Source of the DNA: a virus
IMG/VR virus record: IMGVR_UViG_3300028920_000002
Location: 64,001 to 128,000 of that record
Reading direction: 5' to 3' (one strand)
Length of the DNA stretch: 64,000 bases
The position numbers and the translations under genes were made by a program. Under the pieces are notes generated by a model that worked only from the letters and a program-made list of their open reading frames with translations, had not been told where the DNA came from and made no database searches. Shown one piece after another: positions 49,085-50,044 of this stretch (positions are counted from its first letter, which is position 1; each line of letters begins with the position of its first letter).

Positions 49085-49411
49085 GGGCTAAAAGACGAAC
49101 GCCGCAACCCAGAGGTCACGGCGCCCGCCCCAAGGAGACGAACTTCAGAGTCGGCGAGAGGATGACAAGGGCTGATGTTTCAACGCTGAGTGCTTGATGC
49201 TCAGTGCTGAGGGCTGCCCTGACTGAGGGCTGAGAGCTGCCTGCTTCCATCCCGCTTCTACGCCGAAGCTCCACGAGACGTCGGTGTCGGAACCGATATG
49301 AGTCAGGTCTTCTCATGTTTCACCTTAACAAGGTGAGTGCCCTTTGCCGGGGCGGCGGTACTTGACGTTGTACCCACGCCTCTCGCTCCCTCGTCCGTCC
49401 GTTCCAAGGTC
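49085..49411 (-). ncRNA. candidate structured RNA with 7-nt repeats
   Basis: multiple hairpins plus about 10 degenerate TCAGCMC-like units (49169-49242), downstream of coiled-coil gene. Confidence 0.45.
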
Positions 49412-50008
49412 CTAGACCAGCGTTGTGTGATTCGCTGCTTCGAGCAACGCGTTGAGCTGGTCGAAGGCGGACTGCGCCTTCTCGAGCGCCTCGGTGGCGT
49501 CGTTGATGGTGACCTCGCTGACCACCGAGTACTTTTCGGTGGCGGGCACGCGCTCCGGGCGCTTCCGACCCTTGTCGTCAGCCACCATCTGAATCTTGGT
49601 GGTCTCACGCTCCAGGTTGGTGATGCGCTTGGCCCGGATGCCGTTCTGCCCGTAGCGGGCCTCGTCGTCGGTGGTCGCCGTGTCGAGCAGCGCCTTGTTG
49701 CTGGCGCAGGCACCCTTCAACTCGGCCAGGACGCGCAGGCATCGAGCCAGCGTCATCTTCTTGCCGTTGTAGGTGACGTGGGCCTTACCATTGGCCTCGG
49801 CGATGCGCGCTGCCAGGTCCACCAGCTCTTCACGAAGCGGCGTCACCTTGGACAAGCACTGCGTGTACGAGAACGCAGGTTCCTTGCCTTTCTCGTAGAC
49901 CACGGAAGCAGCCAGGCGCGTCTGCCACGTCTGCAGCTCACCCTTGATGCGGGAGATGCGACGGAGGGCCTGGGAGACGGTCATCTTCTTGGAAGTCTTT
50001 GGTGCCAT
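49412..50008 (-). CDS. coiled-coil protein (DIP1984-like by recollection)
   Basis: MT.SQALRRISRIK..L..RIAEAN..T.A..L..LAEL..D.L..LLEAAN.TT; AAGGAG SD. Confidence 0.55.
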   Translation of the reverse strand: MAPKTSKKMTVSQALRRISRIKGELQTWQTRLAASVVYEKGKEPAFSYTQCLSKVTPLREELVDLAARIAEANGKAHVTYNGKKMTLARCLRVLAELKGACASNKALLDTATTDDEARYGQNGIRAKRITNLERETTKIQMVADDKGRKRPERVPATEKYSVVSEVTINDATEALEKAQSAFDQLNALLEAANHTTLV

Positions 50009-50027
50009 GTGAATGCTCCTTTTCCAG

Positions 50028-50044
50028 TCCACAGTCGTTATCCC
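50028..50044 (-). promoter_or_regulatory. class-1 motif
   Basis: GGGATAA-CGACTG-TGGA. Confidence 0.7.

Follow-up and report, generated by a model that had tools for sequence, protein, structure and literature searches.

Phased NAG triplets on RNA are a signature of multi-subunit RNA-binding proteins; in the trp leader RNA, about eleven phased (G/U)AG repeats wrap TRAP, a ring of as many subunits. The Ro60-Y RNA system, found in bacteria and phages near RNA-repair or tRNA functions, pairs a protein with a small structured non-coding RNA encoded beside its gene. HutP of Bacillus subtilis, a hexamer, binds XAG triplets in the hut terminator RNA that are separated by 4-nucleotide (nt) spacers and thus recur every 7 nt (PMC2425495). 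On DNA, 7–10 contiguous 7-base pair (bp) WATCACW repeats are bound by the omega protein of plasmid pSM19035, one protein unit to each repeat (PMC9499535, PMC2441792). Here we describe an array of 7-nt units (heptads) in IMG/VR record IMGVR_UViG_3300028920_000002, a complete virus record of 186.7 kb that has direct terminal repeats and a G+C content of about 60%. The window, by which we mean the whole 64,000-nt stretch analysed, comprises bases 64001–128000 of that record. On its minus strand, the gene for a 198-amino acid (aa) protein (49412–50008) is followed by 327 non-coding bases (49085–49411) that contain the array (Table 1). From sequence comparisons, this gene-plus-array pair is most likely an undescribed protein-RNA partnership.

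A preliminary description made from the window alone had listed about ten units with a 7-nt period, TCAGCCC, TCAGTCA, ..CAGCCC, TCAGCAC, TGAGCA, TCAAGCAC, TCAGCGT, TGAAACA and TCAGCCC, at 49169–49242. These units were present, and the array was found to start further 5', at 49248. Tandem Repeats Finder reported no array at score 30 because the units are too degenerate. Lag-7 autocorrelation was 0.478 at the listed coordinates and 0.537 in the best-placed 74-nt segment, the latter being the maximum across the 186.7-kb genome (background 0.25 ± 0.055); the maxima of 20 third-order Markov genomes ranged from 0.478 to 0.522, none reaching 0.537. Since the simulated maxima were close and eight non-triplet lags could have been chosen, the 7-nt period is at the edge of chance in this sequence by itself. 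Once relatives are compared, the array is far beyond chance.

Relatives were reachable only through profiles, as blastn of the region and tblastn of the protein against phage records gave no match, and a scan of viral contigs with a pattern from the single protein found no relative. Loci (designated by L numbers) came from three sources: viral, metagenome and genome collections scanned with patterns derived from profiles, divergent representatives looked up exactly, and cellular genomes searched for the family. Eighteen were obtained first, followed by six more, L153, L158 and L159 and, weakly, phage T5, making 28; L145, on a short contig with just 120 nt past the stop codon, was left unscored. 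The loci are on viral contigs, metagenome contigs, three contigs from cellular genomes or metagenome-assembled genomes (MAGs), and T5; they range in G+C content from 28 to 67%, and their proteins are 25 to 37% identical to the 198-aa protein. The array was present in all 27 loci with enough downstream sequence, or 28 of 28 when the weak T5 case is counted, always downstream of the gene and on its strand, never inverted. It mostly started 105–400 nt past the stop codon, at about 590 nt in L143, where a gene is inserted; the first three homologue contigs looked up had 340–570-nt gaps behind the gene. The AT-rich locus L004 gave a clean run of TAAGCCC TAAGCAT TGAGCTT TAAGTTT TTAGCCA TAAGCAT. In L015 a direct duplication of about 75 nt (~2215–2375) lies right after the array tail.

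An all-against-all comparison of neighbouring open reading frames (ORFs) showed that the gene of the 198-aa protein's family, DUF6847, was the sole gene common to the loci. In the reverse direction, a protein-blind DNA pattern (two units plus tail, ..AGCACTTGT) matched four viral stretches in IMG/VR: two were identical chance matches in coding sequence, one was an unrelated inverted array, and the fourth, in L153, was genuine, with a DUF6847 homologue directly upstream. The loose pattern TNAGC repeated four times was unspecific, matching more than 120 viral stretches of which just one had the gene; the others were multi-copy heptad arrays of another kind, described below. When 301 genomes were sampled from the class of one module-bearing MAG, the curated DIP1984 model matched two, both with an array. 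In T5 (L156, AY543070; 43063–44143, minus strand) the curated Pfam model found nothing, and a 150-sequence profile matched T5.085 at 19 bits; this gene is followed by a 442-nt unannotated gap holding GAUAUUACCGACAC and a NAAAG array of 7–8-nt period ending in ..CCC. On this weak sequence evidence it is plausible that T5 carries the module behind T5.085. About 2 kb beyond that gap, the T5 annotation has 'rnaX, stable RNA with unknown functions'. The preliminary description had paired the gene with a non-coding element; comparable repeats behind the homologous genes in 28 of 28 loci bear this out, and a functional pairing of gene and RNA, of whatever kind, is highly probable in our view.

For the unit consensus, units were picked by chaining AG dinucleotides, so that A3 and G4 are fixed by the anchor rather than measured. 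Among 106 seven-base units from 19 loci, position 1 was U in 80%, position 2 was C, G or A, position 5 was C in 76%, and positions 6 and 7 were free. The step between units was exactly 7 nt in 87 of 111 cases, and lag 7 was the top or near-top periodicity in almost all loci. When 15 loci were aligned with plain MAFFT, the final five heptads came into register and the AG columns were near-invariant. From first unit to tail, the arrays measured 60–109 nt (median about 70), or about ten units. A coding reading was ruled out by codon usage and six-frame stops. The 66-aa ORF that crosses the array had a codon score of −0.24, which places it under the 1st percentile of gene windows of 66 codons, and a third-position G+C content of only 0.60; it had no Pfam or PHROG match, and no frame was conserved among relatives. 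All six frames of 49085–49411 had negative codon scores, and 12 of 24 arrays had stops in every one of the six frames, showing that the array is not translated, as the preliminary description had supposed from its period. The outcome that it had named as fatal to its interpretation, homologous genes bare of any such element and a region that simply encodes the 66-aa ORF, was thus the opposite of what we found. We also rejected a 3+4-base decoding tied to the odd tRNAs of this phage, as the heptads contain no CUUU and relatives lacking such tRNAs keep the array.

Three kinds of evidence bear on whether the element acts as RNA or as DNA. First, among hairpins with stems of at least four Watson-Crick pairs between stop codon and array, GNRA tetraloops capped 11 of the 37 with four-base loops on the sense strand and 2 on the antisense strand, where about 1 in 32 is expected; the stems differed by locus (UUGCGA-GCAA-UCGCAA, UGGCGG-GCAA-CCGCCA, CACGA-GCAA-UCGUG and GCAGGGA-GCGA-UCCCUGC). 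Second, duplexes between the flank 5' of the array and its tail were more stable in cognate (−12.8 kcal/mol) than in permuted combinations (−11.2 kcal/mol; 24 loci, p = 0.0012). This permutation test was chosen over fixed-column pair counting, which fails because of 1-nt register shifts. The closing pairs were GGAGGGA/UCCCUCC in L147, CCAGGG/CCCUGG in L002, GACGGGG/UCCCGUC in L014, GCUGGGA/UCCCGGC in L019, AGCUGG/CCAGCU in L122 and GGAUGG/UCAUCC here, and the comparison showed covariation at the sequence level, in that the predicted helix changes sequence and keeps complementarity. Third, in this phage and its nearer relatives, the array is preceded by the stop codon and followed by the same strong intrinsic terminator. 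Together, the sense-biased GNRA loops, the covarying closing helix and this position point to an element that works as gene-strand RNA rather than DNA.

Alternatively, the heptads might be duplex-DNA iterons of the omega type, serving as a replication origin, partition site or operator. Proteins are known to bind 7-bp repeats that adjoin one another on DNA (PMC9499535, PMC2441792), the neighbourhood includes DNA metabolism in the form of a ligase gene, sense and antisense strands fold equally well, and 'Siphovirus Gp157', to which the protein model bears a resemblance (see below), is a protein of the replication module. In addition, unrelated phage contigs hold many (TCAGCNN)n arrays in both orientations that resemble DNA sites. 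Nevertheless, we think that duplex iterons are quite improbable here: the orientation is fixed to the gene strand in 28 of 28 loci, the GNRA loops are strand-specific, stems contain G-U pairs, the array sits inside the interval from stop codon to terminator, and each genome has just one copy, without an adjoining AT-rich unwinding region. The arrays of the unrelated IMG/VR contigs (L097, L099, L066, L020, L073, L086 and L061) are near-perfect (TCAGCNN)n, (TTAGCNN)n or (TGAGCAG)n repeats, intergenic, often in inverted pairs round a short spacer and as many as 14 per 9 kb. The DUF6847 gene was absent from all five such multi-array records searched, and these arrays are a separate 7-bp repeat class, possibly operators or terminators.

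The 198-aa ORF has phage codon usage (score +0.43), confirming that the gene is real. Its product belongs to Pfam family DUF6847 (PF20935), scoring 38 bits against a cut-off of 27 (E 2e-9, residues 22–143). With NCBIfam DIP1984_fam (NF038048) it scored 41.3 bits, and 35.8 bits in the genome search, below the cut-off of 70 bits, and so represents a distant branch outside that curated subfamily; an exhaustive HMMER search with this branch collected 251 cluster representatives (50% identity clusters) at E <= 1e-3. In an AlphaFold2 model from a 150-sequence alignment (predicted local distance difference test score 95), four long helices are accompanied by two beta-hairpins, one short and one long, the latter at residues 129–163. 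Foldseek matched this model to 3KDQ, an uncharacterised DIP1984 protein (E 2.7e-5, template modelling (TM) score 0.83 by target), and VIA aligned the two over 150 of 152 residues at Z 13.9, the next best matches, at Z 8.8, being generic helical ones. By this model, 3KDQ is the only convincing structural relative and the fold is that of DIP1984, so that the 'coiled-coil' label of the preliminary description was inexact. In the ESM Atlas the model resembled the 'Siphovirus Gp157 family' (TM 0.66–0.74), which we treat as a lead only. Conserved residues lie in a basic first helix (ALRRxKKLKG; L15, R16, K22, G23 and R31) and in an N..E..NH cluster in the last helix (F182, N186, E190, N193 and H194). 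Matches to a PHROG 'tail fiber' (E 2e-5), DinB_2 and TAC were dismissed as below any useful level. In the papers searched we found no mention of DUF6847 or DIP1984, 'septicolysin' only as an annotation label, and no mention of a partner RNA.

The preliminary description had also likened the locus to a type III toxin-antitoxin system, in which a toxic protein would be neutralised by a repeat RNA that it processes. ToxIN and its relatives do share with this locus a protein gene adjoining a tandem-repeat non-coding RNA with a terminator. In those systems, however, the repeats are near-identical, about 36 nt (~34–45 nt) long, and upstream of the toxin gene with a terminator between; here they are degenerate, downstream of the gene, and at 7 nt too short for antitoxin pseudoknots. 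Pfam revealed no ToxN-, CptN- or AbiEii-type domain, and the PADLOC defence models had no match. The locus departs from the type III systems in all the defining features tested, and we regard such a toxin-antitoxin pair as very improbable. The observations of the preliminary description are confirmed and its interpretation is partly supported.

Unit positions 2, 6 and 7 vary freely and adjoining units are not consistently complementary, so that protein read-out of single-stranded RNA fits better than internal pairing. Hairpins within the array (UCAG with CUGA) were considered and rejected, as many loci hold UAAG or only UGAG units, which are unable to pair in this way. Since phased NAG triplets are a signature of multi-subunit RNA-binding proteins, and since the array always travels with one gene, the simplest reading is that the product of that gene reads the units. 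We propose, with a probability of roughly 0.55, that the DUF6847 protein reads the heptads at about ten sites per RNA and forms a defined particle with it. We infer this contact from the strict co-occurrence of gene and array and from the analogy with HutP and TRAP. The gene and the 327 bases behind it would make up one two-part module, in which a partner RNA accompanies a protein of the DIP1984/DUF6847 fold. This RNA probably arises as a 3' extension of the gene's transcript, ending at the intrinsic terminator. Its 5' part would be folded into hairpins, and its core of about ten U-N-A-G-C-N-N units would be presented as a largely single-stranded loop of 60–80 nt, which is shut where the G-rich 5' flank pairs with the UUGUnnnCCC tail in a short helix. 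Multiple protein copies, or a single assembly of many subunits, would then dock next to one another on NAG(C), one per 7 nt, and the outcome would be a particle with roughly ten protein sites on each RNA.

Several observations weigh against this proposal. RNA binding is not known for the DIP1984 fold, and 3KDQ, the sole structural relative, is uncharacterised. Fold energy showed no strand preference, the sense strand being more stable in 13 of 24 loci. RNAalifold returned no consensus structure from the broad 15-sequence MAFFT alignment, and the closing helix is short and was not found in 4–5 of the 15 aligned loci. Lastly, small ORFs of 135 and 70 aa lie between the DUF6847 gene and the array in L143 and L146, respectively, indicating that tight coupling through a 3' untranslated region is not obligatory.

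The lack of any hint of RNA binding in the protein fold would also suit a different arrangement, in which the RNA serves some other partner, for instance a nuclease, a defence factor or an RNA-binding protein of the host, as decoy or scaffold, and the DUF6847 protein works on or beside this RNA (chaperone, enzyme or cargo) instead of coating the heptads. Catalysis or metal binding could be the role of the conserved N/E/N/H cluster. A tRNA-mimicking RNA is suggested by the hairpin at 49320–49336, which has a 5-bp stem and a 7-nt loop of form YU-NNU-AA; the same shape occurs, with stems changed on both sides, in L002 (CUGGA-CUUGUAA-UCCAG), L011 (CUGGA-CUCAUAA-UCCGG) and L007 (UGGG-CUGAUAA-CCCA). 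The loops of these four loci (UUGUUAA, CUUGUAA, CUCAUAA and CUGAUAA) resemble the anticodon arm of tRNAs reading A-starting codons, a likeness that could be tRNA mimicry or coincidence. Of 29 module loci, 6 also have tRNA genes in their short flanks, a possible context signal that is suggestive only. A decoy or scaffold appears unlikely to us all the same: the module spans phages of very different G+C content and cellular genomes, so that a single host partner would have to be near-universal, and DUF6847 alone always travels with the array.

The 3' region of this phage had a fold z-score of −3.6. The hairpins listed in the preliminary description, GGTAC/GTACC, TCACCTT/AAGGTGA, TCGG/CCGA and GCTTC/GAAGC inside CGTCTCG/CGGGATG, were all found, as was its terminal hairpin, 16 bp followed by UCUUUUAGCCC within 49085–49131. 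Just 5' of the array, most loci carry the consensus GAYAYCGAYAC, and many, not all, have a variable hairpin at the position of 49248–49280. Searches with Rfam release 15 at gathering scores found nothing in the window except two tRNAs, and at E <= 1 gave no match for seven loci bearing the element. Behind the array, L002, L003, L007, L011 and L147 share the GGGGCGGG..CCCGUCUUUU terminator with this phage.

A terminator so placed raises the possibility that the array is a cis-regulatory 3' or intergenic element, a platform that controls termination, mRNA stability or translation with no stable particle formed. In this subfamily the array is about 40 nt ahead of the strong terminator, and same-strand genes come next in L002, L007, L011 and L147; the G-rich pre-array segment can pair with an upstream C-rich strand, as a local hairpin, or with the tail, an arrangement that resembles a switch in L014–L019; and HutP and TRAP act in this way on NAG repeats (PMC2425495). 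In this phage, however, the next gene is convergent, so that there is nothing downstream to regulate. No terminator was seen after the array in many loci (L014–L019, L005 and L009), and the large conserved GNRA-capped 5' domain exceeds the needs of a simple attenuator. We therefore judge a purely regulatory role unlikely. By weight, the alternatives to a protein-RNA particle rank as regulatory switch, decoy or scaffold, omega-type DNA iterons, and type III toxin-antitoxin pair.

The module is flanked on one side by a 176-aa gene of unknown function and on the other by a convergent 138-aa gene and then an ATP-dependent DNA ligase gene; by a rough gene call, the 389-nt gap there is the largest convergent gap of the genome. 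About 1 kb upstream of the module are two unusual tRNA genes and a Pth2-like gene. The tRNA genes form a tandem pair (51052–51205, plus strand), both read by ARAGORN as Phe (anticodon aaa) with odd loops. This neighbourhood of tRNA genes, Pth2-like gene and ligase weakly hints at RNA or tRNA metabolism. RtcB was not found in this phage, and in MAG G008, the one MAG checked, RtcB and the module were on separate contigs, so that an RtcB context was not seen.

The terminator of the module is also attached to a sequence of genome-wide occurrence. Six intergenic sites of the genome have TAGCCCTCA(A/G)T directly after a hairpin and T-run; TTTAGCC likewise follows terminators in the relatives L002, L003 and L147, and a second motif, TTCGGGGATAA, lies about 40 nt ahead of start codons (window ~52600 and ~66830; L002 and L007). 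The TAGCCCTCA(A/G)T and TTCGGGGATAA motifs are probably phage-specific signals marking transcript ends or starts.

Table 1. Features of the module and of the associated terminator motifs, in window coordinates except where noted
Feature	Position	Strand	Basis or remark
198-aa gene, DUF6847/DIP1984-fold protein	49412..50008	-	Pfam, AlphaFold2 model, fold match, codon score
Non-coding 3' region (candidate RNA), stop codon to terminator	49085..49411	-	327 nt; codon scores, fold, homologous regions
Hairpin GGTAC/GTACC	49357-49374	-	Sequence
Hairpin UCACC-UUGUUAA-GGUGA	49320..49336	-	Sequence; 5-bp stem, 7-nt loop YU-NNU-AA
Pre-array motif CGACACCGACG	49279..49289	-	Family consensus GAYAYCGAYAC; most loci, just 5' of array, T5 included
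Hairpin CGUCUCG..GCUUC-GGCGUA-GAAGC..CGGGAUG	49248..49280	-	Outer stem with two G-U pairs
Heptad array, about 10-11 units	49169..49248	-	~80 nt; family consensus U-[C/G/A]-A-G-C-N-N; lag-7 maximum, unit statistics
Closing helix, 5' strand GGAUGG	49247..49252	-	Pairs with UCAUCC at 49160-49165
Array tail UUGUCAUCCUC	49158..49168	-	Family consensus UUGUnnnCCC; holds closing helix 3' strand (49160-49165)
Intrinsic terminator	49090..49131	-	~16-bp G+C-rich hairpin and U-tract; sequence, fold
66-aa ORF crossing array, not a gene	49116..49316	-	Codon score, third-position G+C, no match
TAGCCCTC motif ('class-1' motif), genome-wide sequence attached to terminators	49081..49090	-	Sequence
Inverted second copy of TAGCCCTC motif, after terminator of convergent gene	49057-49064	+	Sequence
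TAGCCCTCA(A/G)T terminator sites	49057-49068(+), 49080-49091(-), 52618-52629(-), 63225-63236(+), 66849(-); genome 18600(-)		

For annotation, the module accounts for one of the longest 'empty' gaps of a compact genome, and the 66-aa ORF should not be called. We give even odds to a broader proposal, in which the DIP1984/DUF6847 proteins, mislabelled 'septicolysin', would supply the protein component of a ribonucleoprotein that is widespread and in no catalogue. Each gene would have its own helix-closed rail of about ten units as the assembly site of the protein, and the particle would have an RNA- or tRNA-related task in large phages, possibly T5, and some cells. If the proposal is true, it would provide the first functional handle on a sizeable protein family (the 251 clusters noted above), a new structured RNA family for phage biology, and a third independent case, new in fold and architecture, in which proteins read NAG repeats that are phased along an RNA. 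The apparent weak copy behind T5.085 would make the idea directly testable in a standard laboratory system.

Among known systems, the nearest to the protein is the DIP1984 family (Pfam DUF6847; 3KDQ of Corynebacterium diphtheriae, often labelled 'septicolysin'), with the same predicted fold and a Pfam score above gathering; the phage protein belongs to a longer, phage-type branch (198 aa, with an extended beta-hairpin), and is only 16–20% identical to 3KDQ. Ro60-Y resembles the module in concept only, having a TROVE ring protein and another RNA architecture with no repeat rail. The sites of omega are double-stranded DNA, lie in either orientation and are bound by a ribbon-helix-helix dimer, whereas the array of this module keeps to one orientation and its features speak for RNA. 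TRAP comes close in repeat number to the approximately ten units here but differs in its period of 5–6 nt, its beta-sandwich 11-mer and its role in a 5' leader attenuator, and shows no sequence or fold relationship. HutP is closer than TRAP because its 4-nt spacers give the 7-nt period: both RNAs have XAG at that period (87 of 111 steps for NAG here) with free spacer bases, and the HutP reader is multi-subunit. HutP itself is of another fold and family, no HutP family appearing in the Pfam scan and the DIP1984 fold being predicted instead. Its sites are 3+3 triplets in a 5' leader terminator that regulates downstream genes; the array described here has about ten contiguous units 3' of its own gene, in a predicted helix-closed loop, with a conserved C after the AG and a conserved U two bases before it, and the terminator is about 40 nt further on, without overlap, and is followed by a convergent gene.

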